This document shows, piece after piece, positions 292 through 17,718 of a stretch of 54,658 bases of DNA. Origin of the DNA: Clostridia bacterium (GTDB lineage: Bacteria; Bacillota; Clostridia; Oscillospirales; Acutalibacteraceae); contig JAGAPJ010000012.1 of the NCBI GenBank assembly GCA_017623315.1, positions 1-54,658 on the forward strand. Reading direction: 5' to 3'. A program made the translations under genes and the position numbers. The notes below the pieces were generated by a model. The model was not told the origin of the DNA, ran no database searches, and saw only the letters and a program-made list of their open reading frames with translations. Positions within the stretch are counted from its first letter, which is position 1. Each line of letters opens with the position of its first letter.

Positions 292-1221
292 TTATTTTTT
301 GCCTTTTGCAATGCGGCGGCGTCTCCAAATAACCCAAAGGGGACCGGAAACGAAGAGAGATGATACAGCACCGGATAAAAGACCGAATACCATGGGAATG
401 GCAAAGGTGCGAAGGCTTGTAAGACCATAAATTTCTGAAACAGCAATAATAGTTGTAACAGCCAAAAGGGTTGTAGCGGTAGTAACAATGTTACGAATAA
501 CAACGGTGTTAATGCTGGTGTTTACAAGCTGACCAATTTCCATATCGGGATTGTACTTTTTGTTTTCGCGGATACGGTCATAAATAACGATGGTGTCGTT
601 AAGTGAATAGCCGAGCATTGTAAGTACAACTGCAATATAGTTAGAGTCGATTTGAAGTCTGAAAATAACACAAACAAAGAATGTGATAAGCACGTCGAAC
701 ACAAGTGAAACAAGTGCTGTAATACCTGCCGATACACCACCGATTCTTCTAAAGCGGATACCAACGTAAATTACAACCAATACAGCGGTAATTAAAACGG
801 CAACCAAGCTTTTAGCAAAGAACGAGCCTGCAACCGAAGGAGAAACCGAGTTAGAGTCGTAAAGTTCAATTTTATTGTCCTTGAATTTTTCAACTAAGGC
901 TTTTGTCATAGCTTCTTGTGTTTTTGCAGATAAGGCATTTTTGCCTGAAAGTGAAATTTCAAAGGTTTGGGTATCGCCTGCAAGAGAGGTAGACTTTCTT
1001 AAATTGTATTCCTTTTTAATGTGCTGGTCAACAATAGCTTCAATATCCTTGTCGGCAAGCTCACCTGTGTAGGAATAAGAAACCTTAGCACCGCCCGAGA
1101 AGTTAATATCAAGCTTAACGCCAAATATTACAGACCACAAAATACCGATAACGAAAATTGCAAGGTAAACAATTAAAATGGGTTTTAATGCTTTATTAAA
1201 ATCAATATTAAACTTACGCAT
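292..1221 (-). CDS. secF: Protein translocase subunit SecF
   Basis: 309 aa, six-TM SecF-type sequence. Overlaps secD by 8 nt. Confidence 0.93.
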   Translation of the reverse strand: MRKFNIDFNKALKPILIVYLAIFVIGILWSVIFGVKLDINFSGGAKVSYSYTGELADKDIEAIVDQHIKKEYNLRKSTSLAGDTQTFEISLSGKNALSAKTQEAMTKALVEKFKDNKIELYDSNSVSPSVAGSFFAKSLVAVLITAVLVVIYVGIRFRRIGGVSAGITALVSLVFDVLITFFVCVIFRLQIDSNYIAVVLTMLGYSLNDTIVIYDRIRENKKYNPDMEIGQLVNTSINTVVIRNIVTTATTLLAVTTIIAVSEIYGLTSLRTFAIPMVFGLLSGAVSSLFVSGPLWVIWRRRRIAKGKK

Positions 1222-2599
1222 TTTTCTTACCTCCGTACAAAGCGGGATTTCTCAAGAATTTTGCTTTTGAGATGCTCTTAATCATAATTCTGGAAGCAAG
1301 AACGCCCATGATGAGATTAAAGATAGTACCTACTAACAAGGTGTAACCGAAGGAGTAGATAGAACCTGTGATAGATGTGCCGAAAAGTGACATTAAGGGT
1401 GAGAATACCTGTGCTAATAAGCTGTCAGGTGTACCGAAAGCGCCCATAAGTACAATAGAAACGATTACGATGGTAACGTTACCGTCGATAATTGCGCTAA
1501 GTGAGTTCTTATAACCTGAATCAATAGCACCGTCAATGGTCTTGCCCTTTTCGAATTCGTCACGAATACGTTCAGCAGCAATAACGTTACAGTCAACGCC
1601 CACACCGATAGAAAGGATGATACCTGCAATACCGGGGATGGTAAGTGTAAAGCTTTCAAAGCCGGGGAAGTAGCCTGAAATACAAGCAATCGAGCCTGCA
1701 AGCTGACCTAAAAGTGCGATTGCAGCAACAAAACCGTTAAGGCGGTAGCGGGCAATCATAAGTAAGCAAACAAGTGCAAATGCGATAGAGCCCGCAATAA
1801 CCATTACGTTAAGTGCGTCGTTACCAAGTGTTGGTGAAATAACCTGAAGCTTGCTGTCGTCAACGGTTAACGCAAAGGGAAGTGAGCCTGCATTAATTTT
1901 ATCGGCAAGTGCTTCTGCTTCTTCAGCACTGCCCATTCCTGTAATAACTGCTTTGCCGTCGGTAATTTGTTCGTTAACGGTTGGGGCTTGAATTTGTGTG
2001 TCGTCCATCCAAATAGAGATGGTTTTGCCCTTAAGCTCTTTAGTAGCGGTAGAAAATTTTTCCTTACCGCTATCTTTAAGTTCAAGCTGAACAACGTATT
2101 GACGTTGACCTAATTCAACCTCCTGATATGCGGGGGTTGCCTTTTTAACGTCAGCACCTGTTAAAATAACCTTTGAAGAATCTGTTTCTTTACAGAACTT
2201 TAAAAGTGCGGTTGCACCAAGTTCTTGTACGGCTGCAGCTGCATCAAAATCGCTTTCTTCAGCAGCCCAGGGGAAGCGAACGATAATTTGCTTATTGTTT
2301 TTGTCGGCGTAAACCTCATAGTCGGTGATGTTTTGGTTTACAAGACGGGTTTCAAGGATGGCTTTAGCGGCGTTAATATCGTCGTCGGTAATTTTAATGC
2401 CTTCCTTGTCGGGTGAAAATACAGCTTCAACACCGCCGCGGATATCAATACCCCAACGAATGTCGTCTGCACCCTTAAAATAAACTAATTCGGTGTCGCC
2501 ATAGTAGTTTTTAACACCAAAGAAAGCGGTAAATGTTAACGCTAAAATTAGTGCGAGAACTACGAAAAACGGCACAATGCCTTTCTTTTTGGACTTCAT
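1214..2599 (-). CDS. secD: Protein translocase subunit SecD
   Basis: 461 aa with an N-terminal TM, a large periplasmic-type domain and a C-terminal SecD/SecF TM bundle. Confidence 0.93.
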   Translation of the reverse strand: MKSKKKGIVPFFVVLALILALTFTAFFGVKNYYGDTELVYFKGADDIRWGIDIRGGVEAVFSPDKEGIKITDDDINAAKAILETRLVNQNITDYEVYADKNNKQIIVRFPWAAEESDFDAAAAVQELGATALLKFCKETDSSKVILTGADVKKATPAYQEVELGQRQYVVQLELKDSGKEKFSTATKELKGKTISIWMDDTQIQAPTVNEQITDGKAVITGMGSAEEAEALADKINAGSLPFALTVDDSKLQVISPTLGNDALNVMVIAGSIAFALVCLLMIARYRLNGFVAAIALLGQLAGSIACISGYFPGFESFTLTIPGIAGIILSIGVGVDCNVIAAERIRDEFEKGKTIDGAIDSGYKNSLSAIIDGNVTIVIVSIVLMGAFGTPDSLLAQVFSPLMSLFGTSITGSIYSFGYTLLVGTIFNLIMGVLASRIMIKSISKAKFLRNPALYGGKKNA

Positions 2600-2664
2600 A
2601 GTAATCCTCCAATGATATGATATATGATTTATTATACTAAATTAAAAGCCTAAAGTCAATTAAT

Positions 2665-3936
2665 TTAATCTTTTAAAAGCTTTTCGAGTGCAGCATATTT
2701 AACTGCGGTGCAAAGCACTAAGGAAGCCTTTTCAATTTCGGCTACCGATGGGTAGGACGGTGCAATTCTTAAATTGCTGTTTTTGGGGTCATTACCATAT
2801 GGGTATGTAGCACCTGCGGGGGTTAAAATCATACCTGCGTTAGCACAAAGCTGTTCAACACGTTTAGCACAGCCTTCCATAACATCAAGGCTAATAAAGT
2901 AACCGCCCTTTGGTTTTGTCCAGGTTGCAATTTCCTTGCCTTTAAGGGTGCTAAGTGCATTTAAAACTGCTTCAAATTTGGGTCTTAAAATTTCAGCGTG
3001 CTTTCTCATATGTTCTCTAACAGCGTCAGCGTTTTCAAACACACGTGCGTGACGAAGCTGATTTAACTTATCAGGGCCAATGGTTTGGAATTTCATACGG
3101 CTTTTTAAAAGCTCAACGTTGTTGGGGCTGCCTGCTTCAACTGCAACACCTGCGCCGGGGAATGTAACCTTTGAAGAAGAGGTGAAAATTAAAGGTAAGT
3201 CGGGGTTGCCAGCCTTTACACATTCGCTGTAAATATTTAAAAGCTTGTCGCCATCATCATAAAGGTCGTGAATAACGTAAGCGTTATCCCAAAAAATTCT
3301 AAAGTCGCTGGCGGCGGGCTTTAAAGCAGCCATACGGCGTACAACTTCATCTGAATAGGTGTTACCAACAGGGTTAGAATATTTGGGGACGCACCAAATA
3401 CCTTTAACCGACGGGTCTTTAACCCACTGTTCAACCTCGTCCATATTTGGACCGTTTTCATCGCTTGAAATTGTAATAAGTTCAAAGCCAAAATATTGGG
3501 TAATGGCAAAATGTCTGTCATATCCGGGCGAAGGGCATAAGAACTTACGGTTTTTGCATTCGTACCAAGGCTCGCCGCCCATGCCGTGTGTCATTGCTTG
3601 GGCAACGGTGTCAAACATCATATTAAGTGATGAATTGCCGCCAACAATAATTTGGTTTTCTTCAAGCTCTAAAATATCGGCAAAAATTTTTTTCATTTCG
3701 GTAAGACCGTCAAGGCCTCCATAGTTACGGCAGTCAATACCGTCAATGTTTTTAAAGCCTGTATCGTTGCCAACAAGGTCAAACATTTTTTGGCTTATAT
3801 CCATATTATCAAAGCCGGGCTTACCGCGTGACATATCAAGCGATAAATGCATTGCGCGAAGCTTTTCGTATTCAGCTTTGACCGATGAAAACTCTGCTTC
3901 AAGCTCGGGCTTGGTCATTTGTAAATAACTTTGCAT
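2665..3936 (-). CDS. PLP-dependent aminotransferase (class I/II fold, aspartate-aminotransferase-like)
   Basis: The translation has aminotransferase-fold motifs (SSSKVTFPGAG, GGYFISLD). I moved the start to the ATG at 3936, which follows aaggag; the track ORF extends to 3999. Confidence 0.85.
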   Translation of the reverse strand: MQSYLQMTKPELEAEFSSVKAEYEKLRAMHLSLDMSRGKPGFDNMDISQKMFDLVGNDTGFKNIDGIDCRNYGGLDGLTEMKKIFADILELEENQIIVGGNSSLNMMFDTVAQAMTHGMGGEPWYECKNRKFLCPSPGYDRHFAITQYFGFELITISSDENGPNMDEVEQWVKDPSVKGIWCVPKYSNPVGNTYSDEVVRRMAALKPAASDFRIFWDNAYVIHDLYDDGDKLLNIYSECVKAGNPDLPLIFTSSSKVTFPGAGVAVEAGSPNNVELLKSRMKFQTIGPDKLNQLRHARVFENADAVREHMRKHAEILRPKFEAVLNALSTLKGKEIATWTKPKGGYFISLDVMEGCAKRVEQLCANAGMILTPAGATYPYGNDPKNSNLRIAPSYPSVAEIEKASLVLCTAVKYAALEKLLKD

Positions 3937-4023
3937 AAGTAAACAATCTCCTTTTTTCGTTAACCAATATATAATACTATATATTAGCAAATTTTGCAAG
4001 AGTTTTTAAAGTAAGAAATACAT

Positions 4024-4053
4024 AAAGACCGCACTTTTTAGGGTGCGGTCTTT
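4024..4053 (-). terminator. Rho-independent terminator after the parB/noc-like gene
   Basis: Stem aaagaccgcac/gtgcggtcttt. Confidence 0.75.
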
Positions 4054-4101
4054 ATGCTTTAAGGGGGGATGATTATGATAATTAAGAAAAAATCTTAATT
4101 T

Positions 4102-4935
4102 CTAGCAAATTTTAAGCTGTTCACAGTCGTTTCGTTCAGGTGTATTTTTTGAAATTCTCACTTTATATTCAATGTATTTATCGTTTTCATATTTACGGGT
4201 TTTAGCATTTAATCCTGCATTTTGTAAGGTATTTACTAATTTTGAAAGACTGTTGTAAAAAAGCCTAACGTCGCTTATTGCATATTTTCTAATTGGCTTT
4301 TCGGGAGGCAGTTCTTCTTGCTTAGGATTTAAAATATTTTCAATATATTCTTCGCTTTCCTTTAAATTTAAAGCGTTTGCAATAATATAGTTAAGGGCGT
4401 TTTCACGGTCGGTGCCATCAAGACGCAATAATGCACGGGCATGGCGTTCGGTAAGACGGGCGGTAATAATACGCTGGCGTTGATCGTCGTTTAACCTTAA
4501 AAGTCTTAATTTATTTGAAAGTGTAGACTGTGCTAAACCAAGGCGGGTGGCAATTTCAAGCTGTGGCATACCAAAGTGAACTATAAGGCGGTTTATGGCT
4601 TCTGCCTCTTCAAAAAAGGTTAAGTCCTGTCGCTGTAAATTTTCCATTATGGCATAGATTGCGGCGGTTTTATCATCGGTGTTATGTAATACACAGGGAA
4701 TACGGCGAAGCCCAACCATTTTAGCGGCGAGAAAACGGCGTTCACCCGCAATAATTTCATATTTACCGTCAATGCTTTTTCGCACTGCTAAGGGCTGAAT
4801 AATTCCGCTTGACTGAATACTGTCGGCTAAAAGCTTTAATTCATATTCGTCAAAGCTTTTTCGCGGTTGGTTTTTTGATGGCTTAATTTCACTTGGACGT
4901 AACATTAAAAGCTTCTTTTCCCATAGGGTGTACAT
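4102..4935 (-). CDS. ParB/Spo0J/Noc-family DNA-binding protein (Noc-like by its position after rsmG)
   Basis: ParB N-domain motif IIAGERRFLAAK and a following HTH (LEIATRLGLAQSTLSNKLRLLRL). Lies directly downstream of rsmG, as noc does in Bacillus. Confidence 0.85.
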   Translation of the reverse strand: MYTLWEKKLLMLRPSEIKPSKNQPRKSFDEYELKLLADSIQSSGIIQPLAVRKSIDGKYEIIAGERRFLAAKMVGLRRIPCVLHNTDDKTAAIYAIMENLQRQDLTFFEEAEAINRLIVHFGMPQLEIATRLGLAQSTLSNKLRLLRLNDDQRQRIITARLTERHARALLRLDGTDRENALNYIIANALNLKESEEYIENILNPKQEELPPEKPIRKYAISDVRLFYNSLSKLVNTLQNAGLNAKTRKYENDKYIEYKVRISKNTPERNDCEQLKIC

Positions 4936-5020
4936 TCTACCGCCTCCTATGTTTTAGTATAAAAACAGTAACGAATTTTGTAAAGAAAAACACGTCGTTA
5001 AAATTCGGCATAATAAAACA

Positions 5021-5048
5021 AAAACAGCCCGTTTATAAGGGCTGTTTT
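5021..5048 (-). terminator. Hairpin overlapping the rsmG stop codon
   Basis: Stem aaaacagccc/gggctgtttt. Confidence 0.6.
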
Positions 5049-5752
5049 GAAATATTTCCGCTGTTTCGGGGGTATTTTGGCGGTGTTTGCGATATTTTTT
5101 TAAATATTACAAAGGTTCTTGGGTCATTATTGGGGAGCTTTTCGCATATAATTTCGGGTTTTCCCATTTTTAAAACCTTAATTGCGTTATCACAAAGGGC
5201 AATCTCATCCTCGGCAGATGGACCTTTCATAGCAATAAATCTGCCGCCAACCTTTACAAACGGGGTGCAATATTCCATTAAAACAGGCATATTAGCAACC
5301 GCACGTGCACAGGCAATATCATACTTTTCGCGGTAAGTCGGGTTTTTGCCACCTTCTTCGGCACGGCTGTGAATTGCCTCAATATCGGTAAGGTCACATT
5401 TCTCGATAACATCCTTTAAAAAGGTAATGCGCTTATTTAAACTGTCAAGTAAGGTTACCTTTAAATCTTCACGCACAATTTTTAGCACAAGACCTGGGAA
5501 ACCCGCACCTGTACCCACATCAATAATAGAAGCACCAACGGGTACTTTGTTATGCTTAAAGAACAAAATACAGTCGTAAAAATGTTTATATAAAACATCC
5601 TCGGGCGCAGTTATGGCGGTGAGGTTTATTTTTTCGTTCCATTCGAGCAAAAGGTTGCCGTAAAGGTTAAGCTTTTTAATTTTTGTTTCATCCAACATGA
5701 TGCCAAATTCATTGCAAAGTGGGGAGATTTTTTCAATATTAAAATTAATCAT
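5033..5752 (-). CDS. rsmG: 16S rRNA (guanine527-N7)-methyltransferase RsmG (GidB)
   Basis: 239 aa with SAM motif IIDVGTGAGFPGLVLKI and a GidB-like overall sequence. Confidence 0.92.
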   Translation of the reverse strand: MINFNIEKISPLCNEFGIMLDETKIKKLNLYGNLLLEWNEKINLTAITAPEDVLYKHFYDCILFFKHNKVPVGASIIDVGTGAGFPGLVLKIVREDLKVTLLDSLNKRITFLKDVIEKCDLTDIEAIHSRAEEGGKNPTYREKYDIACARAVANMPVLMEYCTPFVKVGGRFIAMKGPSAEDEIALCDNAIKVLKMGKPEIICEKLPNNDPRTFVIFKKISQTPPKYPRNSGNISKQPL

Positions 5753-6428
5753 TATTTTCTCCTAAATAAGCTTCTAAACGATAAATTGGAAAGCCTTGGC
5801 TTGAAAAACGCGCTTCATATTCGGTAACGATATTACCCTCAAAATCGCTGTTATGAAGGTCAAAGGTAACGTTTTTAAGCGCAAAGCCCGACTGTGAAAA
5901 TTCCTCAATAGAAAATTCAAAAAAGTGCATATTGTCGGTCTTTTGGTGAATTTCAGCGCCGTTTTTTAAAAGCTCTTTATAAATTTTTAAAAATCTTCTA
6001 TGTGTTAAGCGGTGTGCGGCGTAGGCTTTTTTGGGGAACGGGCAGGAAAAATTAAGAAAAATTCGGTCAATGGTATTTGGTGCAATAAATCGGGGTAAAT
6101 ATTCTGCACTGCCACCGATAAAATATAAATTATTAATATTTTCTTTATTAGCGTTTTCGCAAGCGCCAACAATAACGTTTGCGGTTTTTTCCACAGCAAT
6201 TAAGTTGATTTCAGGGTGGCTTTTTGCATATTCACAGGCAAATTTACCCTTGCCACAACCAATTTCAAGGTAAATGGGGTTATCGTTTTTAAAAATTTCC
6301 CTAAAATTTATATATTCTTTTTCCTTAATTGCTGTGTTAAAGTTTCTATCATCAATATTTATAGTAAAAAGGTTATTGCTCACAGCCTCTAATCTTTCAT
6401 TTAAATATTTCTTTTTTCGCATTCTCAT
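5745..6428 (-). CDS. trmB: tRNA (guanine46-N7)-methyltransferase TrmB
   Basis: 227 aa with LEIGCGKGKF and FLNFSCPFPKK motifs typical of TrmB. Confidence 0.9.
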   Translation of the reverse strand: MRMRKKKYLNERLEAVSNNLFTINIDDRNFNTAIKEKEYINFREIFKNDNPIYLEIGCGKGKFACEYAKSHPEINLIAVEKTANVIVGACENANKENINNLYFIGGSAEYLPRFIAPNTIDRIFLNFSCPFPKKAYAAHRLTHRRFLKIYKELLKNGAEIHQKTDNMHFFEFSIEEFSQSGFALKNVTFDLHNSDFEGNIVTEYEARFSSQGFPIYRLEAYLGENND

Positions 6429-6454
6429 AAAATCACCAAGGGCATTATAACTTA

Positions 6455-6487
6455 AAACCCCGTTTTTTTCAAGTAAAAACGGGGTTT
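6455..6487 (-). terminator. Rho-independent terminator after the CARF-nuclease gene
   Basis: 13-bp stem aaaccccgttttt/aaaaacggggttt. Confidence 0.8.
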
Positions 6488-6491
6488 AAGG

Positions 6492-7694
6492 TTAAACAAA
6501 ATCCTTTATCATATTTATAAAATCATTTTCATTCATTAAATGCACGTTTTCAAAAAGGGCAATATCCATATCCTCGGCCCTTTTTCTGAAATATGCTGTG
6601 GCGGTGACGTCTTTGCCGTGATTAGTTGAAACAAGCACTTTTTTTGCATATTTACCGCCAAAACGACGGGCAACAGCGTCTAATTTATAAAGCTCGGCTT
6701 CCTCAATTTCGCCACCCTTACAGGAAATAAAAACAGGAACAAGATTTTTTATTAAAACACAGTCTATTTCATTTTTGGTGTCACCGGTTTTGCTACTGCC
6801 TATCTTTCCGTCCCAGTCGATAATAACGCTTCGTTTGGCATCGTTATAATATGGTGCGCCGTTTTGGTCTTTTATATCAATTGCGGTTTTATAAACCTTC
6901 ATTTCTAAAATATTGCCCGATTTTTCCAAAAGCTCCTTTGCAGTGCTGTTTTTAAATGAAAACTTAATTTCATTGCTTGTTATGTTTAAAAAGGTAATAA
7001 TACCGTCATTTTTTAAAAATTCCAAAAATTCAATAAGCCATTCGCTTGTGCGTTCATCCATTTCGCTGTTTTTGAATTCGGTAAGATTGATTTTTGCAAA
7101 AAGTTCGCGACTGTCACAGTCAAATTTCATTGCACGTTGCAAAAGTTTTACATTTGTGTTGTAATGTTTGTCTGTTTTAAAAACCGACCAAAGCGCCTCA
7201 ATAACAGGACCGGTTTGGTTATTAAGCGGTATTTCATCATTTTTGTTTTCAATAATCATACCGCCGTGAAGGGTTATTTGTTCATCTACCGAAAGGGAGG
7301 CGTTGGTGGACTTTTCGGTTTTTTCACCGTTTTGCCAGGAAACAAGACGGTTTTGGTTAATATGAAAGCGCTGTACGGTAATATTTTTAAAACGTTCTAC
7401 CATAACGCCCATTGCGGTAAGCAAAAGGTCCTCGCCGCCTGTTAAATCAAAGGTGATTTGGGTGTCACTTTTAGCGATGTCGCTTAAAATATCCACAAGG
7501 TTATATAAATCGCTTGTGTCGGTATAAATAAATTCGGCTTTGGTAGATGGCGATTTTGATTTTATAAAACGTGTATAAATATTTTCGCGCTTATCACTTT
7601 TATTACCTATAAATATTATTTTATCGGGGTGAAGGGTTAAAGCGCTAGCAATGTTTTCGGTAGGACAACGGTATAAAAATTCAACTGTGGTCAA
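6492..7694 (-). CDS. CARF-domain protein with a C-terminal PD-(D/E)xK-like nuclease domain (Card1/Can2-like, DUF1887-type)
   Basis: 400 aa. The N-terminal Rossmann-like region has DKIIFIG and FDLTGGEDLL (CARF TGG motif). The C-terminal region has GNILEMKVY ... NEIDCVLIKNLVPVFISCKGGE ... GGKYAKKVLVS, a restriction-endonuclease-like pattern. Confidence 0.65.
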   Translation of the reverse strand: MTTVEFLYRCPTENIASALTLHPDKIIFIGNKSDKRENIYTRFIKSKSPSTKAEFIYTDTSDLYNLVDILSDIAKSDTQITFDLTGGEDLLLTAMGVMVERFKNITVQRFHINQNRLVSWQNGEKTEKSTNASLSVDEQITLHGGMIIENKNDEIPLNNQTGPVIEALWSVFKTDKHYNTNVKLLQRAMKFDCDSRELFAKINLTEFKNSEMDERTSEWLIEFLEFLKNDGIITFLNITSNEIKFSFKNSTAKELLEKSGNILEMKVYKTAIDIKDQNGAPYYNDAKRSVIIDWDGKIGSSKTGDTKNEIDCVLIKNLVPVFISCKGGEIEEAELYKLDAVARRFGGKYAKKVLVSTNHGKDVTATAYFRKRAEDMDIALFENVHLMNENDFINMIKDFV

Positions 7695-7712
7695 GCCTTA
7701 CACTCCTAAAAA

Positions 7713-8114
7713 TTAATTTTTGTTAAAGCCTGTGAAAACGACCTCGGCAACCTTTGTGCCAAGCTCGTCGGTTATGTGAACGGTATAGTAGCAGGTGGCG
7801 CGGCCAAATTTAACACATTCGGCTCTTGCTATAAGTCGGTTGCCCTTTACAACACCTAAAAATGAAATAGTCGAGCTAAGGGATACGGTACGCATTATCT
7901 CGTGATTGGTAGCGACTGCAAAGGCAAAATCTGCGAGCATAAAGGGAACACCGCCCATAACTCCGCCTGCGGCGTTTTTGTGGGTGGGGCCGATTTTTAA
8001 GCTACAAACTGCCCAGTCCTCACCAACCTCGTCAATTACAGCGCCGTTTTCGGTCGCGAAACGGTCGGCTTTAAAAATTTCTCTTATTTCCTCAACGGTT
8101 TTCAATATATACAC
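7713..8114 (-). CDS. PaaI-family hotdog-fold thioesterase
   Basis: 133 aa with the HKNAAGGVMGGVPFMLADFAFA motif. Confidence 0.85.
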   Translation of the reverse strand: MYILKTVEEIREIFKADRFATENGAVIDEVGEDWAVCSLKIGPTHKNAAGGVMGGVPFMLADFAFAVATNHEIMRTVSLSSTISFLGVVKGNRLIARAECVKFGRATCYYTVHITDELGTKVAEVVFTGFNKN

Positions 8115-8135
8115 CTCTTAACCATTATTGCCCAA

Positions 8136-8816
8136 TTAGATTAAAACATAAAAGAAAACCGAAACAAATTGCAAAACGCTTCCTACCACAACGAAAAGGT
8201 GGAAGACCGAATGAATGTATTTTGTTTTCTTTTTAGCGGCAACGGCGTAAAATATTGCACCGATGGTATAAGCAATACCGCCTGCAAGCAGCCACCAAAA
8301 GCCTGCCGCATCCATAGCATTTAAAAGCGGCTTTAAAACAAAAAGCACGCACCAACCAACCGCAATATAGCAAACGTTTGAAAAAACGCTGTACTTTTTT
8401 AAATCAATGGCGTTAAAAACAACGCCTAAAATTGCCATTGCCCAGACAAAGCCGCAAAGCCCCCAACCAATGAATGCGTTATATTCGCGCAGGTTGCAAA
8501 GGGCAATAGGGGTGTAGGTGCCTGCTATCAAAATAAAAATAGCGCAGTGGTCTATTATCTGAAAAACCTTTTTGGCAGTTACGGGTACAAGCCCGTGGTA
8601 AATGCTTGACATGGTGTAAAGCACCACCATAGAAATGCCGTAAATAAATGCGCCTACAATTTGGTAAGCATCAAAATTTAAAAATGCCTTAATAATGCAA
8701 AGGGCGGCCATAATAACACCCAAACCGCCACCCGAAATGTGTGAAACCATATTAAAAATTTCTTCCCCACGGGTGTAAGGTGGAAGAATACGGTCTTTAA
8801 GCTTTGTTCTTTTCAA
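8136..8816 (-). CDS. Hemolysin III / PAQR-family membrane protein
   Basis: 226 aa, seven TM segments, SSIYHG and HxxxH-type motifs. TTG start. Confidence 0.85.
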   Translation of the reverse strand: MKRTKLKDRILPPYTRGEEIFNMVSHISGGGLGVIMAALCIIKAFLNFDAYQIVGAFIYGISMVVLYTMSSIYHGLVPVTAKKVFQIIDHCAIFILIAGTYTPIALCNLREYNAFIGWGLCGFVWAMAILGVVFNAIDLKKYSVFSNVCYIAVGWCVLFVLKPLLNAMDAAGFWWLLAGGIAYTIGAIFYAVAAKKKTKYIHSVFHLFVVVGSVLQFVSVFFYVLI

Positions 8817-8938
8817 AAATAGTACCTCGTTAGTAAAATTAACTGTTTTTAAGTAATAAAAATGATGTCGAAACTTGACAAATTAATTGACATAATTATT
8901 TACGAAAATTATTAACAACCAGGAAGTTTTTCAACTTG

Positions 8939-9034
8939 TTAACACAGTTATCCACCGAAAAACGCCCCAAAACCTTGATTTTTCGTTTTCAAGGTCTTAA
9001 AAGTGTTAATATTTCGGTGGATAAGTTGGATAAC
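8939..9034. promoter_or_regulatory. Inverted repeats carrying DnaA-box-like 9-mers
   Basis: ttatccaccgaaa (8948-8960) and tttcggtggataa (9012-9024) form a perfect 13-bp inverted repeat. A third box, gttatccaac, is the reverse complement of 9025-9034. ttaacac/gtgttaa lie at 8939-8945/9003-9009. A central 7-bp hairpin sits at 8972-8995. Confidence 0.45.
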
Positions 9035-9106
9035 TTTTATGGTTGCTTCGGTTTACATAAAACCATAAAATTGTAATTTTTTTACATTACGAAAAAACGA
9101 AACGCC

Positions 9107-10321
9107 TTAAATTTTTTCTAGCAATTTGTTCATAATGCTTGGTCCATGTTCCACAAAATTGCCTGTGCTTTCGGCAAATTTTTCGGTTAATTTTTCAACG
9201 CCATTTACTTCTTTGCGGCTGTCGTAAATTAAATAGGGAACAGGGGCTGATGAATGGGTCTTTGTGTTAAGTGGTGTGGGGTGGTCAGGCATAATTAAAA
9301 TTCTGAAATCATCACCACAGTTTTCAAGGTAATCAAAAACAGAAACAAACGCGCGCTGTTCAATAACCTCAATAGCCTTTACCGTATTTGCGGCTTCGCC
9401 ACGGTGACCGCATTCGTCGGGTGCTTCAAAGTGAAGGTATACTAAATCACAGCCGTTTTTGAAAGCATCAATAGTTGCTTTTGCCTTGCCTTCAAAATTG
9501 GTGTCAAGGTAACCAGTCGTGCCCTCAACCTCGGGGGTTAGCATATCGGCGCAAATGCCAATGCCTTTTAAAAGGTCAACCGCACTTATAACAGCGGCTT
9601 TAACACCGTTCTTTTCATAAAAGTTTTCTAAAGCGGGCTTTCTGCCTTCACCCCAAAGCCAAATCGAATTAGCTTCGTTTAGTCCCTTTTCGCGACGCTT
9701 AAGGTTTACGGGGTGGTCCTTTAAAATGTCGTAGCTTTTCTTCATTAAATCAATAAGCGGTGCGGCATTTTCACTTTTGCTGAGGTATTCGCCAATAACA
9801 CGGCCGCTAATGTCGTGAGGGGGTGTCATTTCGCCTAAATCGGTTGTGCCGTTATCCACTACAAGACAATGTCTATAGCTTACACCGCCGTAAAATTTAT
9901 ATATTTCGTTGCCAAGCTTTTCTTCCACAGTTTTAATAATTTCATGGGCTTCCTTGGTGGAAATATCCCCCGCGCAATAGTCAACCATTGTTTTATCACA
10001 ATAGTTTTTTTCATTAGACAGGGTAACAATATTACAGCGAAGCGCAACGTCGGTTTCCTTTAAATCAACACCAATTGATGCAGCCTCCAAGGGTGAACGG
10101 CCTGTATAGCAAACCATAGGGTCATAACCCATAACCGACAAATTAGCAACGTCGCTACCGGGTTTTAAGCCGTTTGCAACCGTTTTGCACATACCTACCT
10201 CTGAAACCTTGGCAAGCTTATCTATCAAAGGCTTGTTTGCAAGCTCCATAGGGGTCTTATTTCCAAGTGACTCATACGGCGTATCAGCCATACCGTCACA
10301 AAGTAAAACTAAATATTTCAT
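9107..10321 (-). CDS. apgM: Cofactor-independent phosphoglycerate mutase, archaeal-type (ApgM family)
   Basis: 404 aa with the LLCDGMADTP N-terminus and metalloenzyme-superfamily motifs (EAPDECGH, MPDHPTP). Confidence 0.85.
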   Translation of the reverse strand: MKYLVLLCDGMADTPYESLGNKTPMELANKPLIDKLAKVSEVGMCKTVANGLKPGSDVANLSVMGYDPMVCYTGRSPLEAASIGVDLKETDVALRCNIVTLSNEKNYCDKTMVDYCAGDISTKEAHEIIKTVEEKLGNEIYKFYGGVSYRHCLVVDNGTTDLGEMTPPHDISGRVIGEYLSKSENAAPLIDLMKKSYDILKDHPVNLKRREKGLNEANSIWLWGEGRKPALENFYEKNGVKAAVISAVDLLKGIGICADMLTPEVEGTTGYLDTNFEGKAKATIDAFKNGCDLVYLHFEAPDECGHRGEAANTVKAIEVIEQRAFVSVFDYLENCGDDFRILIMPDHPTPLNTKTHSSAPVPYLIYDSRKEVNGVEKLTEKFAESTGNFVEHGPSIMNKLLEKI

Positions 10322-10444
10322 ATAAGTACCTTCTTTATGTATTATTATGGATATTATACCAATAATATATTTCTTTGTAAAGAAAAAACACTTTTCTTTT
10401 TAGCATTTTGTGGTATTATGTATTAAGAGGTAGGTGAAACCCCA

Positions 10445-12502
10445 ATGACTAACATAAAAAATGCTGAAATTTTATCCCCTGTTGGCAATAATGAAATGCT
10501 AATTGCGGCAGTTAGAAGCGGTGCCGATGCGGTTTATTTTGGCGCAAAGGATTTTTCGGCTCGCCGAAATGCCGAAAATTTTGGCAGATTTGAACTTAAT
10601 GAGGCAATAAAATACTGTCATATACGTGGGGTTAAAGCCTATTTAACCCTTAATATTTTGATTAAGGATGACGAATTTTCGGATGCGGTAGCATTAGCAC
10701 GTGATGCTTATAATTTTGGCATTGACGGGGTAATTGTGCAGGATTTGGGACTTGCAAATGTCCTCCACAAATTATTACCCCATTTACCCTTACATGCATC
10801 TACTCAAATGTCAGTTCACACTCCCGCCGCCTTATATATATTAAAGAAAATGGGCTTCAAACAGGTGGTAGCGGCACGCGAAATGTCATTTGATGATTTA
10901 AAACAGCTTTGCAAAACCGCAAACGAGCTTGATATGGTAGTTGAGGTATTCGTACACGGTGCATTGTGTATGTCGGTGTCGGGACAATGTCTTTTATCGG
11001 CATATTTAGGCTCTCGCAGCGGTAACCGTGGGCTTTGCGCGGGTCCTTGCCGTTTGCCATTTAAGGTCCAAAATGGTACAGGGTATGATTTAAGCTTAAA
11101 GGATTTATCGTTAGTTGAGCATATAGCCGACCTTTATAATATAGGTGTGCGTTCCTTTAAAATTGAGGGTAGAATGAAGCGCCCCGAATACGTTGCCGCC
11201 GCTACAAAGGCTTGTAAGGAGGCACTTTATAACGGGGTTATTGATTATGAACTTTCAAAAACCCTAGGGAACGTTTTCTCTCGTTCGGGCTTTACCGATG
11301 GTTATTTACAAAACAATCTTGGGCGCGATATGTTCGGTATTCGTACTAAGGAGGACGTGGTATCGGCAGATAAGGCTTTTCCTGTGCTTCACGAAATTTA
11401 CCGAAACGAGCGCCAGTCGGTAGCGGTTGATTTAAAATTTACAGCAAAAGCAGAAAATGAAATCGAGCTTATTTTAACCGATGGTGAAAACACTGTTTTG
11501 GTAAAAGGCTTGAAGCCTGATTTTGCCCAAAATAAAGCCGCCGATTTTAAAAGTGTGCTTAAAAATTTAAATAAATTTGGCGGTACACCATATTACCTAA
11601 ATAATGCTGAAATTGTTTTGGACGACGGTCTTTTCTTACGCGCGGGTGAGCTTAATGAGCTTAGGCGAACAGCGGTGGAATTACTGTCCGAAAAGCGTGG
11701 CGAATGTCAGCGTAAGGAGATAAACTTTATTTTCGGTAAGGACAAACCTTTTGAACGTAATTGCAAAGACCTGCAAACATATATCCGTATTGAAAATGCC
11801 GACCAATTGCCCGACGATTTAAGCGGTATTTCGGCATTAATTTTACCCCTTGAAAATGATTTCCCACAAATAGAGGGGGTTAAATGCATTGCTGAAATTC
11901 CAAGGGGAATTATCAGCGAAGCGGCAATTATAAAACGTCTTGAAATATTTAAAGAAAAAGGTGTCAGCACCGCACTTTGCGGCAATTTATCGGCTGTGAA
12001 AATTGCTAAGGACTGTGGCTTTGAGGTTATGGCGGATACTGGCCTTAACGTTTATAACAGTTATTCGGCTAATGCAGTTTCTAAAATGGGCTGTGATGCT
12101 GTGGTGTTATCAAACGAAATGCTTTTAAGTGATGCTGTGTCACTTTCTTCACCCATAAATAAAGGTATTATAAGCTACGGAAATATACCCCTTATGCTGT
12201 TTAAAAACTGTCCTATTAGAAACGGTAAAAATTGTAATGAATGTGACAAGAAAAACACTATTGTTGACCGAAAGGGAATAGAATTCCCCGTTAGGTGCCG
12301 TATGGGCTACAGCGAGCTTTTAAATTCGGTACCTGTTTGGCTTGCCGATAAGCAAAAGCAAATTAAAAATATCGATTTTCAAATTCTATATTTTACCAAT
12401 GAGGATAAAAAGCGTGTTAATGAAGTAATAAATGCATATAAAAATGCAACCGAGCCTGACTGCAAATATACACGCGGCCTGTTTTTCAGAGGAATAATTT
12501 AA
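10445..12502 (+). CDS. U32-family peptidase (collagenase-like)
   Basis: 685 aa with E.LSPVG, GADAVYFG and SFKIEGRMKRPEYV motifs. Confidence 0.9.
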   Translation: MTNIKNAEILSPVGNNEMLIAAVRSGADAVYFGAKDFSARRNAENFGRFELNEAIKYCHIRGVKAYLTLNILIKDDEFSDAVALARDAYNFGIDGVIVQDLGLANVLHKLLPHLPLHASTQMSVHTPAALYILKKMGFKQVVAAREMSFDDLKQLCKTANELDMVVEVFVHGALCMSVSGQCLLSAYLGSRSGNRGLCAGPCRLPFKVQNGTGYDLSLKDLSLVEHIADLYNIGVRSFKIEGRMKRPEYVAAATKACKEALYNGVIDYELSKTLGNVFSRSGFTDGYLQNNLGRDMFGIRTKEDVVSADKAFPVLHEIYRNERQSVAVDLKFTAKAENEIELILTDGENTVLVKGLKPDFAQNKAADFKSVLKNLNKFGGTPYYLNNAEIVLDDGLFLRAGELNELRRTAVELLSEKRGECQRKEINFIFGKDKPFERNCKDLQTYIRIENADQLPDDLSGISALILPLENDFPQIEGVKCIAEIPRGIISEAAIIKRLEIFKEKGVSTALCGNLSAVKIAKDCGFEVMADTGLNVYNSYSANAVSKMGCDAVVLSNEMLLSDAVSLSSPINKGIISYGNIPLMLFKNCPIRNGKNCNECDKKNTIVDRKGIEFPVRCRMGYSELLNSVPVWLADKQKQIKNIDFQILYFTNEDKKRVNEVINAYKNATEPDCKYTRGLFFRGII

Positions 12503-12530
12503 AAAATCCACCCGCCTGGGTGGATTTTTT
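12503..12530 (+). terminator. Rho-independent terminator
   Basis: Stem aaaatccaccc/gggtggatttt followed by a T-run. Confidence 0.9.
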
Positions 12531-12606
12531 AGTGGATGGTGAAAGGGTGTCGCTTTGCGACGGATATATTATAAAAATTTGGTAATAATATTTGCGGTGA
12601 TTTTTT

Positions 12607-13542
12607 ATGTGTACTGCAATAAGCTATAATGCCGTAGGGCATTATTTCGGAAGAAATTTAGATTTAGAGCGTGGCTATAACGAAAGGGTTGTTATCACAC
12701 CTCGAAATTACAACTTTAAAATGCGCTGTGGGGAAAGACTGCAAAAGCATTACGCTTTAATAGGTATGGCGGCGCTTGCGGGTGAATTTCCCCTTTATTT
12801 TGAAGCCGCAAACGAAAAAGGCTTATGTATGGCGGGACTTAATTTCCCAAACAATGCGGTTTACCACCCTGAAGACAGTGAAAAAATTAATATTGCACCC
12901 TTTGAATTTATCCCTTATATATTAGGTAGGTGTAAAGATGTAGCTGAAGCTGAAAAGCTATTAACTAAAATTAACCTTGTGGATATTAATTACAGCGACG
13001 AGCTTAAGCTTTCACCGCTTCATTGGCTTATAAGCGACGGTGAAAATTCCCTAACGGTTGAAAGTGTAAAGGCAGGGTTAAGGGTTTATAAAAACACCGT
13101 TGGGGTGCTGACAAATAACCCGCCGTTTTTAAAACAGCTTGAAAATTTAGAAAAATATACAAACATTTTTTTGCAAAAACAACCTAGCAATAACGGCGGC
13201 GAGGATTATAGCTTAGGGCTTGAATCACAGGGACTACCCGGCGGCTTTTTATCACAGGACAGGTTTGTGCGCGCTGTATTTGTAAAGCAAAAAGCACCCA
13301 CCGATATTAGCGGGGACGAAGCAGTTAATCAGCTTTTCCATATTTTAGGCAGCGTTGCAATGCCAAAGGGGTGTGTTTTAACCCCGATGGGTCAAAGCGA
13401 ATACACCCGTTATACCTGTTGTATGGATACTGAAAAATGGCATTATTATTACACCACTTACGATAATTGCCAAAGGATTAAAGCATCGTTTGACGATTGC
13501 GATTTAAGCGGCGAGAAAATTTATATATACGAAAATAACTAA
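12607..13542 (+). CDS. Choloylglycine hydrolase family (bile-salt hydrolase / linear amide C-N hydrolase)
   Basis: 311 aa. Has the Ntn-hydrolase MCTA start (catalytic Cys2), then GRNLD. Confidence 0.9.
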   Translation: MCTAISYNAVGHYFGRNLDLERGYNERVVITPRNYNFKMRCGERLQKHYALIGMAALAGEFPLYFEAANEKGLCMAGLNFPNNAVYHPEDSEKINIAPFEFIPYILGRCKDVAEAEKLLTKINLVDINYSDELKLSPLHWLISDGENSLTVESVKAGLRVYKNTVGVLTNNPPFLKQLENLEKYTNIFLQKQPSNNGGEDYSLGLESQGLPGGFLSQDRFVRAVFVKQKAPTDISGDEAVNQLFHILGSVAMPKGCVLTPMGQSEYTRYTCCMDTEKWHYYYTTYDNCQRIKASFDDCDLSGEKIYIYENN

Positions 13543-13555
13543 AGGTTAATATTAT

Positions 13556-13590
13556 AGAGGGATGATTGGTATATCATCCCTCTTTGATTT
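13556..13590 (+). terminator. Rho-independent terminator
   Basis: Stem agagggatgat/atcatccctct followed by ttgatttt. Confidence 0.85.
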
Positions 13591-13789
13591 TAATGAAATT
13601 ACAATCCATCTACAATGCTATATGTGCATATATAACTTGAAAATATCAGCAAAAAATGTTATATTAAATACAAGAAAATGCTTGTTGTTACTTAAAACAG
13701 GAATGTAAGTTGTGTTATAATTAATAAAAGTGTAAAAAGCTGAGAGTTTTTTAAGGTTTATGCGTCTAACAAATAAAGGCGGTGATATT

Positions 13790-14554
13790 ATGAAAAAAGT
13801 AATTTGCTTTTTAATGGTGTTTTTATTATTGTTTTCAACTATTTGCATAACAGCAACGGCCTGTGAATATGTTTCCGATAACGCTGTTACACTGCGTGCG
13901 GGCGGAGGAGGCTCTAGCGGCGGTGGTTCTGGTTCGGGCGGAAGCTCGGGTGGAAGTCATCGCAATGGCTCGAATGGGGAAAGTAGTATTTTGGGCAATA
14001 TTTTAAATTTTATTTTAATGCCGTTTGTATTGTTTTCTTCGTCAATTGCTTTTTATGCACAACTAACCAAGCGTGCACGAAGGTCTAAAAAGCTTATGAA
14101 GCAAATGCTGCAAAGCGATAGTGCGTGGAAATTTAAGGATATATCTGAAACGGTTAACGACAGCTTTTACGCTATTCAAACTGCTTGGACAAATATGGAT
14201 ATGACACCCGCAAAAATATATATGTCAGGTGAGCTTTTGGACAGCTTTCAAACAAAACTTAATTGGATGACCTACCGGAACCAAAAAAACGTTTTGGAAA
14301 AAATTGAGCTTTTATCGGCACTGCCTGTTGCAGTGTATGATGATAAAGATAATTCGCGTGATTTTATTTGGTTTTACATAAAGGGCAAAATGGTGGATTA
14401 TACCATTGATACTATCACACAGTTGAAGGTTGAGGGTAGTACCTCGGCAACCTCGTTTATTGAATATTGGCAATTTGTAAGGCGGGAAAATTGTTGGGTT
14501 TTAAACCAAATTTTACAAAAGGATGAAGCCGATCAAATCCCGTTTAGCGAATAA
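13790..14554 (+). CDS. Secreted/membrane protein with a Gly/Ser-rich linker and a Tim44-like C-terminal domain
   Basis: I chose the ATG at 13790, which follows aaaggcggtga. The protein has a signal peptide, a GGGGSSGGGSGSGGSSGGS tract, one TM, then a Tim44-like region (FYAIQTAWTNMD...). Confidence 0.7.
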   Translation: MKKVICFLMVFLLLFSTICITATACEYVSDNAVTLRAGGGGSSGGGSGSGGSSGGSHRNGSNGESSILGNILNFILMPFVLFSSSIAFYAQLTKRARRSKKLMKQMLQSDSAWKFKDISETVNDSFYAIQTAWTNMDMTPAKIYMSGELLDSFQTKLNWMTYRNQKNVLEKIELLSALPVAVYDDKDNSRDFIWFYIKGKMVDYTIDTITQLKVEGSTSATSFIEYWQFVRRENCWVLNQILQKDEADQIPFSE

Positions 14555-14570
14555 AAAGGAGGAATGTTTT

Positions 14571-15407
14571 GTGAAAAAGTTTAAAAAGTCGTTTTTTGTT
14601 ACAATTATATTGGTTTTGGTTTTACTTTTAAGCGGTTGCAAGGCATTGGTTGGCACCTTTGAAAATGAAAAACTTCGCGACCATACCGACGTAATGCTTA
14701 ATGCAATACTTATGAAGGATGCTGATGCAGGCTATTCACTTGTAAAGGAAGTTTGTGAACGAAGCGATTTTGACCCCTCTTTTGATAAAATGTGTGAAAT
14801 GCTTAACGGCGTTAAAGAATATAACCTAAATATGCTTTCAATATATCAAAAGGCAGGTATACAAAACGGTGAAAGCTATAAATTTGTGGATTCGGTTTAT
14901 GAAATGACCGCAAACGACAAGCGTTATATTATAAGTGTTCAGCTTGACGGTAATACCGAAAAATTACGCCTTTTTAACATTATTCCTTATGAAAAGACCA
15001 ATTATTACTATACCGGTGTTATAACCAATATGAAGGGTGCTTCAGTTATACAGTGGGGCTTTTTGCTTTCTAATCTTTTGGTGGTTGCGCTTGTTATCTT
15101 TGCGCTTATTGACTGTTGTCGACACAAAATTAAGCTTAAACCGCTTTGGATTGTTATAATTCTTTTGGGTGCGTTTTCTATTGGCACAACAATATCTGCA
15201 ACAAGCTTTCATGTGAATTTTGGCATAATCTGGTTTACTGCTTATAGCGCTTTGGTGCGTTACGGTGGCGGTCAGGTGTTATTGCGCTTTGTAATTCCGT
15301 GGGGTGCACCGCTTTATTTCATATTAAGACATTGGCTTATTAAAAAGCCTGAGGTAACACCTGTTACCGAAACGGAAGAGACTGAAAATATACAAACTGA
15401 AGAATGA
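14571..15407 (+). CDS. Lipoprotein-signal protein with a C-terminal multi-TM domain (function unknown)
   Basis: GTG at 14571 follows aaaggagg. Lipobox LLLSGC, followed by four predicted TM segments. Confidence 0.7.
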   Translation: MKKFKKSFFVTIILVLVLLLSGCKALVGTFENEKLRDHTDVMLNAILMKDADAGYSLVKEVCERSDFDPSFDKMCEMLNGVKEYNLNMLSIYQKAGIQNGESYKFVDSVYEMTANDKRYIISVQLDGNTEKLRLFNIIPYEKTNYYYTGVITNMKGASVIQWGFLLSNLLVVALVIFALIDCCRHKIKLKPLWIVIILLGAFSIGTTISATSFHVNFGIIWFTAYSALVRYGGGQVLLRFVIPWGAPLYFILRHWLIKKPEVTPVTETEETENIQTEE

Positions 15408-15410
15408 ATT

Positions 15411-15437
15411 AAACCCCAAGTCGACGACTTGGGGTTT
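15411..15437. terminator. Bidirectional terminator between convergent genes
   Basis: Stem ccccaagtcg/cgacttgggg flanked by an A-run and a T-run. Confidence 0.9.
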
Positions 15438-15450
15438 TTGTTATATAAAA

Positions 15451-16233: not shown

Positions 16234-16310
16234 TTTCAGTCCCCCTTAAAATAGGAATTTTTACATATATATTATACCAATTAATAGCATTAATTTCAAG
16301 TATTGTGTGT

Positions 16311-16330
16311 TATAATTATAATTTGAAAAC
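16311..16330. repeat. Solo copy of the element end motif (tataattataatttgaaaac)
   Basis: Matches the gataaactataatttgaaaac end of copies A and C. It abuts a terminator in the same way they do. Confidence 0.5.
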
Positions 16331-16332
16331 AA

Positions 16333-16364
16333 AAAGCAACCGTGGTATAGTTCACGGTTGCTTT
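16333..16364 (-). terminator. Rho-independent terminator
   Basis: 12-bp stem aaagcaaccgtg/cacggttgcttt followed by a T-run on the minus strand. Confidence 0.9.
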
Positions 16365-16371
16365 AAACATA

Positions 16372-17703: not shown

Positions 17704-17718
17704 CAAAGGTGAGAAAAA

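Follow-up and report, generated by a model that had tools for sequence, protein, structure and literature searches.

The stretch of DNA considered here, hereafter the window, is a 54,658-nucleotide contig of a Clostridia bacterium (assembly GCA_017623315.1, contig JAGAPJ010000012.1), and the gene in question is an open reading frame (ORF) at 6492-7694 on its minus strand, which opens with a TTG codon, encodes 400 amino acids and includes the stop codon in its end coordinate. Its product belongs to the Can2/Card1 family (DUF1887, PF09002; CARF4/Crf4), and it combines a nuclease domain that looks intact with a CARF sensor domain whose ligand-binding motif has changed from basic to acidic. The interpretation we prefer, and hold with roughly even confidence, is that the gene encodes a functional relative of Can2/Card1 with an acidic CARF domain, a ligand-gated nuclease tuned to a signal other than cyclic tetra-adenylate (cA4), possibly a SAM-AMP-like one, that has been kept among housekeeping genes.

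The protein and its transcription unit

Membership in the Can2/Card1 family is indicated by profile, domain and structure comparisons alike. The PADLOC model CARF4--CARF_PDDEXK matches residues 12-398 (E=6.6e-30) and is the best of 11 matching CARF_PDDEXK-type models, made up of the CARF4 group and close variants, while Pfam Card1_endonuc (PF09002) matches residues 259-386 (E=2e-7, 31 bits against a curated cut-off of 26.4). An AlphaFold2 model built on 39 homologues (pLDDT 89.4, pTM 0.88) finds in Foldseek, over its full length, VC1899 of Vibrio cholerae as the best match (1XMX; E=8.5e-22, TM 0.73/0.77), followed by Cdn1 (E=7e-19, TM 0.71) and by Card1 and the Can2 proteins of three organisms (E from 1e-15 to 1e-18), with 1xmx, 7bdv, 8bao, 6xl1 and 8q3y among the entries matched. 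At the level of sequence the relationship is remote: a single-sequence phmmer search of the PDB gave no match, a family profile being required, and with that profile VC1899 was the sole significant match (E=2e-5). A sequence-only reading of this DNA had proposed a CARF domain joined to a restriction-endonuclease fold of the Card1/Can2 type, and had named in advance a Foldseek comparison of an AlphaFold model with Card1 and Can2 as the test; both were recovered at full length and the proposed architecture holds. The peptides it quoted are also all present, at residues 24-30 (DKIIFIG), 82-91 (FDLTGGEDLL), 260-268 (GNILEMKVY), 308-332 (NEID...SCKGGEIEE) and 346-356 (GGKYAKKVLVS). Between the two domains lies an insertion, and an equivalent one has been described for Can2 and VC1899 (PMC7969007).

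The nuclease motif of the family has been published as E-ExD-(E/S)CK (PMC10783487), and the window protein carries it as E264, E309-I-D311 and S324-C325-K326. Seven residues (E264, D293, E309, D311, S324, C325 and K326) are invariant in 78 of 78 family sequences, E334 and K337 are retained in 76 of the 78, and SCK is present in 145 of 150 diverse representatives, which are the best 150 of the profile search described below (all E < 1e-110). S324 stands 13 residues after D311, a spacing that is the same in SthCan2 and TbrCan2. Because motif, spacing and invariance all fit the published motif, the catalytic centre looks intact and of a recognised type. The S-C-K triplet had at first been taken for an anomalous, degenerate E-x-K whose acidic residues were shifted downstream into GGEIEE, a view that does not survive comparison with the family: TbrCan2, which is active and cA4-dependent, has a serine where Card1 has Glu308 (PMC10783487), and with S-C-K a published variant of the motif no shifted residues are needed. 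A compensation of the Cfr10I/NgoMIV type, in which the acidic E334 would be recruited from the following helix, was dropped for the same reasons.

The TTG start is correct, since an AGGAG lies 8 nt upstream of it and the N-terminal MTTVEF is kept in all homologues in the alignment. The gene is tightly packed with a thioesterase gene and a hemolysin-III family (hlyIII) gene in a block set among housekeeping genes, much as the sequence-only reading had described it, and the gap sizes given there, 18 nt to the thioesterase gene and 21 nt for hlyIII, are right. The hairpin it placed after the stop codon is likewise real by RNA folding, and it went unflagged in a consensus terminator scan because the T-tract that follows it is short. 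This hairpin and the promoter-like site that overlaps it suggest that the nuclease gene is probably the last of a hlyIII-thioesterase-nuclease unit, and that trmB-rsmG probably forms a separate transcription unit. The consensus scan also picked up two signals inside the thioesterase gene, a promoter-like site (9/12) and a weak hairpin resembling a terminator (7743-7763), and given these the nuclease gene may be subject to some independent regulation.

Table 1. Features of the nuclease gene and its surroundings in the window, and the four species loci in which a subfamily member lies inside a type III CRISPR locus (coordinates in the last four rows are those of the respective locus; square brackets mark the subfamily member; MAG, metagenome-assembled genome).
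Feature	Coordinates	Strand	Basis or content
Nuclease gene (Can2/Card1/VC1899 family, acidic-CARF subfamily)	6492..7694	-	ORF, PADLOC, Pfam PF09002, AlphaFold2, Foldseek 1xmx/7bdv/8bao/6xl1
N-terminal CARF (Rossmann-like) domain, about aa 1-150	7245..7694	-	Alternating strand/helix in AlphaFold2 model; PADLOC and Foldseek alignments
Altered CARF sensor motif D83-L-T-G-G-E88-D89	7428..7448	-	Alignments; canonical form NxTGGTK (PMC10783487)
Helical/beta-hairpin insertion domain, about aa 151-257	6924..7244	-	AlphaFold2 secondary structure
C-terminal PD-(D/E)xK nuclease domain, aa 258-400	6495..6923	-	E264, D293/D295, E309-x-D311, S324-C-K326, E334/K337
S324-C325-K326, (E/S)CK element	6717..6725	-	Invariant in 78/78; aligns with E-C-K of VC1899 and 8BAO
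Shine-Dalgarno AGGAG	7703..7707	-	8 nt 5' of TTG; read from sequence
4HBT/PaaI-type thioesterase gene	7713..8114	-	Pfam 4HBT E=1.6e-7; 18 nt upstream of nuclease gene
Hemolysin-III family membrane protein gene, first of the co-directional unit	8136..8816	-	Pfam HlyIII E=9e-39
Stem-loop (13 bp) directly after nuclease stop codon, likely terminator	6455..6487	-	dG -19.2 kcal/mol, z = -4.5
Promoter-like site TTGAAA-17-TATAAT, 11/12, 5' of trmB	6444..6472	-	Consensus scan, pattern match only; overlaps hairpin
L043, uncultured Oscillospiraceae MAG	1833-13082		Cas6-like, Cmr1-like, Cas10b, Cmr3, Cmr4, Cmr5-sized ORF, Cmr6, CorA, [member], Cas6, 10-repeat array; Cas6-like and Cmr1-like called from reading translations, Cmr5 (144 aa) by position and size only
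L062, Coprococcus sp. MAG	441-7745		Cas10b, Cmr3, Cmr4, Cmr5, Cmr6, CorA, [member]
L059, Faecousia sp. MAG	9992-19548		[member], DEDDh-like, CorA, Cas6, array, Cas2, RT-Cas1, array
L067, Coprococcus intestinihominis CLA-AA-H190 isolate	1280-10352		[member], Cas6, two ORFs (122, 573 aa), Cas10 (III-D-like), Cas7-Cas5-Cas11 fusion

The sensor motif and the subfamily

In all seven clades of Can2 the CARF domain carries the motif NxTGGTK, which mediates the binding of cyclic oligoadenylates (cOA) (PMC10783487). The window protein does not have this motif in its canonical form. TGG had been recognised at the outset as the mark of a CARF domain, and it is indeed present, but the motif is not a normal one: NxTGGTK here reads DLTGGED, a reversal of charge from basic to acidic that had been overlooked. 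Within the 78 family sequences D83 is found in 77, G86 and G87 in all 78, an E or D at position 88 in 72 and a D or E at position 89 in 77, and among the 150 representatives both residues after the glycines are acidic in 107, 134 of the 135 in which the motif pattern was found have an acidic residue at one or both of these positions, and T-K occurs in 0. A profile alignment, read with the residue equivalences of PMC7969007, places D89 opposite R96 of VC1899 and K99 of Can2, a cA4 contact, and N31 opposite D34 of VC1899 and T42 of Can2. VC1899 is a non-CRISPR homologue of Can2 that lacks the cA4 contacts and is unresponsive to cA4, and its putative ligand pocket is acidic/hydrophobic (PMC7969007); from the alignment, the pocket of the window protein would be acidic as well.

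With the sensor motif changed from NxTGGTK to DxTGG[E/D][D/E], cA4 is an unlikely ligand for the window protein. The charge reversal at the lysine position argues against a cA4-dependent activation of DNase or RNase activity, and a signal less anionic than cA4 fits the motif better. A sensor of another nucleotide signal was among the options that the sequence-only reading had listed, and it is now the favoured one.

The acidic signature is widespread. An exhaustive profile search of 1.84 billion representatives clustered at 50% identity returned 751 proteins with E<=1e-30, a number that rises to 1394 when the cut-off is E<=1e-10 and to 2325 when it is E<=1e-3, and 523 loci in reference genomes, taken one per species, encode a relative. 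Nearly all of the best 80 of these 523 loci belong to gut MAGs that bear the label Oscillospiraceae, Acutalibacteraceae, Eubacteriales or Clostridia; a few are labelled Lachnospiraceae or Coprococcus, and one comes from a cultured Coprococcus isolate. Fifty positions are conserved across the whole subfamily, every catalytic residue among them. As far as sequence can tell, the acidic sensor signature defines a large subfamily of gut Clostridia. In one relative, P0148 (833 aa), the CARF-nuclease is fused to Sel1/TPR repeats at the C-terminal end, and large TPR proteins related to these repeats (cluster 56) adjoin family members in L070, L076 and L045.

Comparison with the characterised proteins brings out both what has been kept and what has been altered. 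Like Can2 and Card1 (SthCan2, 7BDV; TresuCard1, 6WXW/6XL1; TbrCan2, 8Q3Y), the window protein consists of a CARF domain, a helical insertion and a PD-(D/E)xK domain with the nuclease motif in common, and some members of its subfamily are also encoded in type III loci. It differs from them in its sensor motif and shares only about 15-18% sequence identity with them, and whereas Can2 and Card1 belong to type III loci, a setting not seen for this gene anywhere in the window, no cas genes lie near the window copy or near the members in about 95% of its subfamily's species loci. Those members that are linked to CRISPR are partnered mostly with CorA, of the SAM-AMP type, unlike the effectors of the cA4 type. 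VC1899, the founding DUF1887 member, is the closest structure and is likewise an orphan outside type III CRISPR; a Can2 fold, a pocket without the cA4-contact residues and, within the 54 kb, no type III association are all found for the window protein too, and VC1899 is the one characterised protein of this kind. It differs in having E-C-K where the subfamily has S-C-K, in having an arginine at the position of the Can2 lysine where the window protein has an aspartate, and in coming from a different phylum and context, whereas the acidic-CARF subfamily is large and partly linked to CRISPR and CorA. The second-best structural match, Cdn1 (9U49/8Z4I), is CARF4-related; it binds cAn broadly, which indicates that CARF pockets in this family can change their ligand range (PMC12825302). 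It differs from the window protein in being CRISPR-associated and activated by cyclic oligoadenylates.

Genomic context, inheritance and the likely signal

Proteins 63-81% identical to the window protein form a tight clade, and in every assembly examined the genes stand in the order U32 peptidase, apgM, hlyIII, thioesterase, nuclease, trmB, rsmG, parB, with a single exception within the clade (L014, 9291-11200), where tblastn synteny shows no thioesterase gene and hlyIII is followed by the nuclease gene after a 32-nt gap. The arrangement of the window recurs in at least eight independent species-level assemblies, nearly all of the related loci being MAG contigs. Against seven species-level orthologues, the ratio of nonsynonymous to synonymous substitution rates (dN/dS) of the nuclease gene is 0.13-0.18, compared with 0.035-0.14 for the flanking genes, at a comparable dS of about 0.7-1.2; the nuclease gene thus evolves roughly twice as fast as its neighbours, and its ORF is intact, at 400-403 aa, in all orthologues. 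Because dN/dS is low and dS similar to that of the flanking genes, we conclude that the nuclease gene has co-diverged with its neighbours, is vertically inherited and is under purifying selection.

These data leave little room for the idea that the gene is a decaying or inactive remnant of a former CRISPR accessory gene, without function. The absence of cas genes nearby and the faster evolution of the gene would suit a remnant, but the low dN/dS over such a dS, the uniform length of the ORF and the 50 positions conserved throughout the subfamily do not, and we regard it as extremely improbable; the suggestion of a degenerate domain in the sequence-only reading is contradicted by purifying selection together with the invariant catalytic and sensor residues. 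The impression that the gene is more AT-rich than its neighbours was mistaken, its GC content being 36.2% against a window mean of 39.6% and 33.5% in the adjacent trmB. A compositional anomaly or recent horizontal transfer was rejected, as GC and GC at third codon positions (0.349 in the nuclease gene) fall inside the range of the window and dS matches that of the flanking genes. An origin of the window copy in a mobile element or phage was also rejected, with 0 tblastn matches in phage and plasmid collections and no full-length viral structural match.

Sister lineages present a different picture upstream of trmB. Of 80 metagenomic loci with a TrmB at 60-74% identity, 32 of them with the full 7-kb upstream flank, 0 have the nuclease, thioesterase or hlyIII gene there; 16 retain trmB-rsmG, 12 of these 16 also parB, and the genes upstream of trmB vary by lineage, so that the position is a synteny breakpoint. 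The hlyIII-(thioesterase)-nuclease unit therefore stands beside trmB only in this lineage. From this gene order, the copy in the window lineage is best described as detached from cas genes, vertically inherited, and the last gene of a hlyIII-(thioesterase) unit beside trmB-rsmG-parB. Neither hlyIII nor a thioesterase adjoins any of the distant family members examined, so functional coupling to them is unlikely, and a functional module with both was rejected as a property of the family, since distant relatives are without either and L014 is without the thioesterase. In one sister lineage (L092, 1783-2799) a 338-aa protein, by eye resembling a helix-turn-helix (HTH)-WYL regulator, is encoded directly upstream of trmB.

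Elsewhere in the subfamily, partner genes do recur. In 26 of 67 other, distant species loci we find, within 10 kb, one or more of a 602-aa membrane protein whose C-terminus is RyR-like (no Pfam match), proteins with a RyR domain, YbjN-like proteins, a protein of 1165 aa (AAA+/M41) and another of 660 aa (AAA), a TIR-kinase and a TraG-like ATPase. Judged by their gene content, the loci that bear these partners look like conflict-system, that is defence-like, islands. The partner set recurs in L006, L008, L019, L022, L031, L066 and others and resembles an uncharacterised conflict system, and L043 joins two such partners (AAA and YbjN-like) with a type III-B locus.

Such contexts bring into view a role independent of CRISPR. 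The protein might be a sensor nuclease for an endogenous, stress or phage metabolite, or for the signal of a non-CRISPR conflict system of the TIR-kinase, RyR or AAA+ kind, or it might be a nuclease that needs no ligand and serves some cellular role close to the region of the replication origin (trmB-rsmG-parB). Vertical inheritance at a fixed place in a housekeeping block speaks for this, as do the recurring non-CRISPR partners and the precedent of VC1899, an orphan that is not regulated by cA4. At the same time, the window protein has the same sensor and catalytic residues as those members that lie within type III/CorA loci, and this points to a common class of ligand; the recurring partners are not present in the window; and the hlyIII and thioesterase neighbours are lineage-specific, the latter dispensable. 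Overall, we consider a CRISPR-independent role somewhat unlikely.

Type III CRISPR loci house a subfamily member in four of 79 species loci (Table 1), and in three of these the member directly adjoins the gene of a CorA effector, L043 and L062 being full type III-B loci. Around 95% of the species loci lack any cas gene within 10 kb. Apart from the calls in L043 qualified in the table, the genes of these CRISPR loci were assigned by PADLOC, Pfam or PDB matches. The 573-aa ORF of L067 might be a divergent CorA, and the host of that locus is in culture, which makes experiments possible. In a neighbour-joining tree the four CRISPR-embedded members sit in three different branches, and 49 of the 50 subfamily-conserved positions, among them all sensor and catalytic residues, are the same in them as in the window clade. 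The best solved relative of the L043 Cas10b (3689-5164) is 9LQ5_B, a 600-aa III-B Cas10 (E=6e-32), with the classical cOA-producing Cmr2 at about 1e-10, and the Cas10 proteins of L043 and L062 are short and so probably without an HD domain, as in the enzyme of Bacteroides fragilis.

Because these four loci lie physically inside type III systems, the subfamily is not intrinsically independent of CRISPR, and the notion of an ordinary accessory effector acting in trans, in which the Cas10 product of a distant type III locus (cA4 or another cOA) would activate the nuclease as it does Can2 and Card1, gains some plausibility. Family membership and an intact nuclease motif are what such an effector would show. 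The cOA-contact residues of NxTGGTK are now acidic, however, as they are in the cA4-unresponsive VC1899; about 95% of the species loci, as noted, stand apart from cas genes; and a single chromosomal site has been kept across at least eight species-level assemblies, whereas CRISPR loci are, we presume, usually sporadic. On this balance we think an ordinary effector of this kind quite unlikely.

CorA is reported to be a SAM-AMP-activated effector and is described as obligately paired with a SAM-AMP-degrading enzyme (PMC10600005, PMC11229360, PMC12255297), a III-D2 system also makes SAM-AMP and SAM-AMP2 (PMC13294483), and the 2025 CRISPR classification describes the SAM-AMP pathway's constituents as not thoroughly characterised. 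L043 and L062 share with the CorA-type III-B/III-D systems, such as Cmr-CorA-NrN of B. fragilis, a compact Cmr layout with a short Cas10; L059 has CorA with Cas6, Cas2, RT-Cas1 and arrays only, and its DEDDh-like ORF is of a sort also found in the systems described. The window differs from all of these in having no corA, cas10 or degrading enzyme, and adjacency to CorA in a type III locus is a feature of the L043, L062 and L059 members and not of the window gene. In the literature searched, no Can2-like or CARF component of the SAM-AMP/CorA pathway is described, nor is the association of a member of this subfamily with corA, and the link of the window protein to SAM-AMP is one that we infer.

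Whereas cA4 carries four negative charges, SAM-AMP is roughly net-neutral, with sulfonium and amino groups. Since corA directly adjoins the genes of some subfamily members whose sensor residues are the same, and given a pocket predicted to be acidic, a SAM-AMP-type messenger is the most concrete candidate for the ligand, a tentative proposal to which we give a low probability.

A variant of this idea would make the protein an enzyme that degrades the signal. Here the CARF domain would bind SAM-AMP and the PD-(D/E)xK domain would hydrolyse its phosphodiester bond, in place of the NrN, DEDD or SAM-lyase partner that CorA systems reportedly require, and stand-alone copies would protect from such signals or reset them. 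In L043 and L062 the subfamily gene directly follows corA and no NrN, DEDD or lyase was recognised there (PDB sequence searches for SAM-AMP-degrading enzymes at these two loci gave nothing significant, and the ORF downstream in L062 is unrelated to the DEDDh-like ORF of L059), which speaks for this variant, CorA effectors being described as obligately associated with a degrading enzyme (PMC10600005). Still, the searches made leave room for divergent lyases or NrN at both loci, L059 has its DEDDh-like ORF besides the family member, the known substrates of the family's PD-(D/E)xK enzymes are nucleic acids, and a degrading enzyme would have no obvious purpose in a genome lacking the signal. We regard a signal-degrading role as highly unlikely.

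We therefore return to a ligand-gated nuclease tuned to a non-cA4 signal. By analogy with Can2 and Card1, the window protein would act as a homodimeric, divalent-metal-dependent nuclease gated by a small molecule. Once a ligand was bound by the CARF domains, the two PD-(D/E)xK domains would shift in position and begin to cleave DNA, RNA or both, and the outcome would be a growth arrest of the defence type. The ligand could be the SAM-AMP-type messenger of CorA-containing type III systems, one candidate among others, with a type III/CorA locus elsewhere in the genome or a non-CRISPR process as its source. Dimerisation, ligand gating, nuclease activity and the identity and source of the ligand in this genome are all points that we infer from such analogies.

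Several considerations weigh against this picture. All function in the acidic-CARF subfamily is predicted, and the pocket charge comes from sequence alignment alone. The link to CRISPR is seen in only four of 79 species loci, where adjacency could reflect the clustering of genes in defence islands, and no source of such a signal is visible in the 54-kb window. SAM-AMP is asymmetric, while the classical ligands of CARF dimers, the cOA rings, are symmetric. For a defence effector it is unusual to be kept vertically for so long among housekeeping genes. Finally, VC1899, the closest structure, showed only a weak and unregulated RNase activity in vitro, so ligand gating should not be assumed.

An orphan Can2-like gene is not new in itself, since VC1899 has already been published as an orphan. 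In the literature searched, what appears undescribed is a subfamily with an acidic sensor signature and its size, together with the fact that it occurs mostly outside CRISPR loci, lies repeatedly next to corA and has become fixed in a core-genome block in one lineage. The seven described Can2 clades are reported with one sensor motif and one ligand, cA4; the acidic branch keeps the nuclease and reverses the charge of the sensor, and it comprises hundreds of 50%-identity clusters in gut Clostridia, mostly outside CRISPR loci, with the CRISPR-linked ones beside CorA. This makes it a specific candidate, open to experiment, for a sensor or processing enzyme new to the SAM-AMP pathway. In the window lineage, moreover, a defence-type effector can be seen clearly to have become fixed in a housekeeping setting, and this case bears on the question of what orphan CARF proteins such as VC1899 do. 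A bolder proposal, for which we claim only a low probability, is that in the acidic-CARF subfamily we meet, for the first time, a CARF-type receptor for type III messengers of the SAM-AMP class, or for a closely related cationic or zwitterionic nucleotide conjugate, and that in the window lineage it was captured into the core genome and has long been retained there with no cas genes beside it. If so, CorA-type systems would gain a nuclease arm, and the window copy would point either to a signal that acts in trans across the chromosome or to SAM-AMP-like molecules that arise independently of CRISPR.

The remainder of the window

The sequence-only reading had seen no cas gene, cyclase or CRISPR array in the 54 kb, and Pfam, PADLOC, repeat, Rfam and tblastn scans bear this out. 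Among the other 45 ORFs of the window PADLOC finds no Cas, CD-NTase or SMODS family, its matches being generic look-alikes only (NifS as DndA/SspA, FtsK as mad8). Tandem-repeat and CRISPR-like repeat scans detected no CRISPR-like arrays in the window, Rfam gave 0 matches and tRNAs number 0, and tblastn with Cas10b, Cmr3-6, CorA, Cas6, Cas2 and RT-Cas1 from the related loci gave nothing there; the absence of the recurring partner genes of distant subfamily loci was established with the Pfam and PADLOC scans. What remains is ordinary Clostridia chromosome, where the genes identified include secDF, an aminotransferase, parB/noc-like, rsmG, trmB, apgM, a U32 peptidase, a choloylglycine hydrolase, a TRAP/TAXI transporter, feoB, fba, ftsK, tex, glycerol-3-phosphate dehydrogenase-like genes, nifS, thiI, cinA, a sortase and an ABC/FtsX transporter; a few more could be recognised from their translations alone.

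Some smaller features of this chromosome are worth recording. An HTH_3 regulator gene at 39012-39401 on the plus strand appears split over two frames (51 + 75 aa) and is a frameshifted paralogue of an intact 123-aa HTH gene at 24063-24434 on the minus strand. Adjoining the split gene is a 66-aa ribbon-helix-helix-like ORF (38748-38948, minus strand), in a stretch of about 1 kb otherwise without long ORFs, and just upstream of the intact gene a 25-nt unit is repeated 2.5 times (24455-24517), which may be an operator-like repeat. At the end of the window (52521-54494, minus strand) an Imm26-family immunity protein (355 aa, Pfam E=4e-19) is encoded beside an unannotated 262-aa ORF; this could represent a remnant or belong to a polymorphic-toxin immunity cluster.

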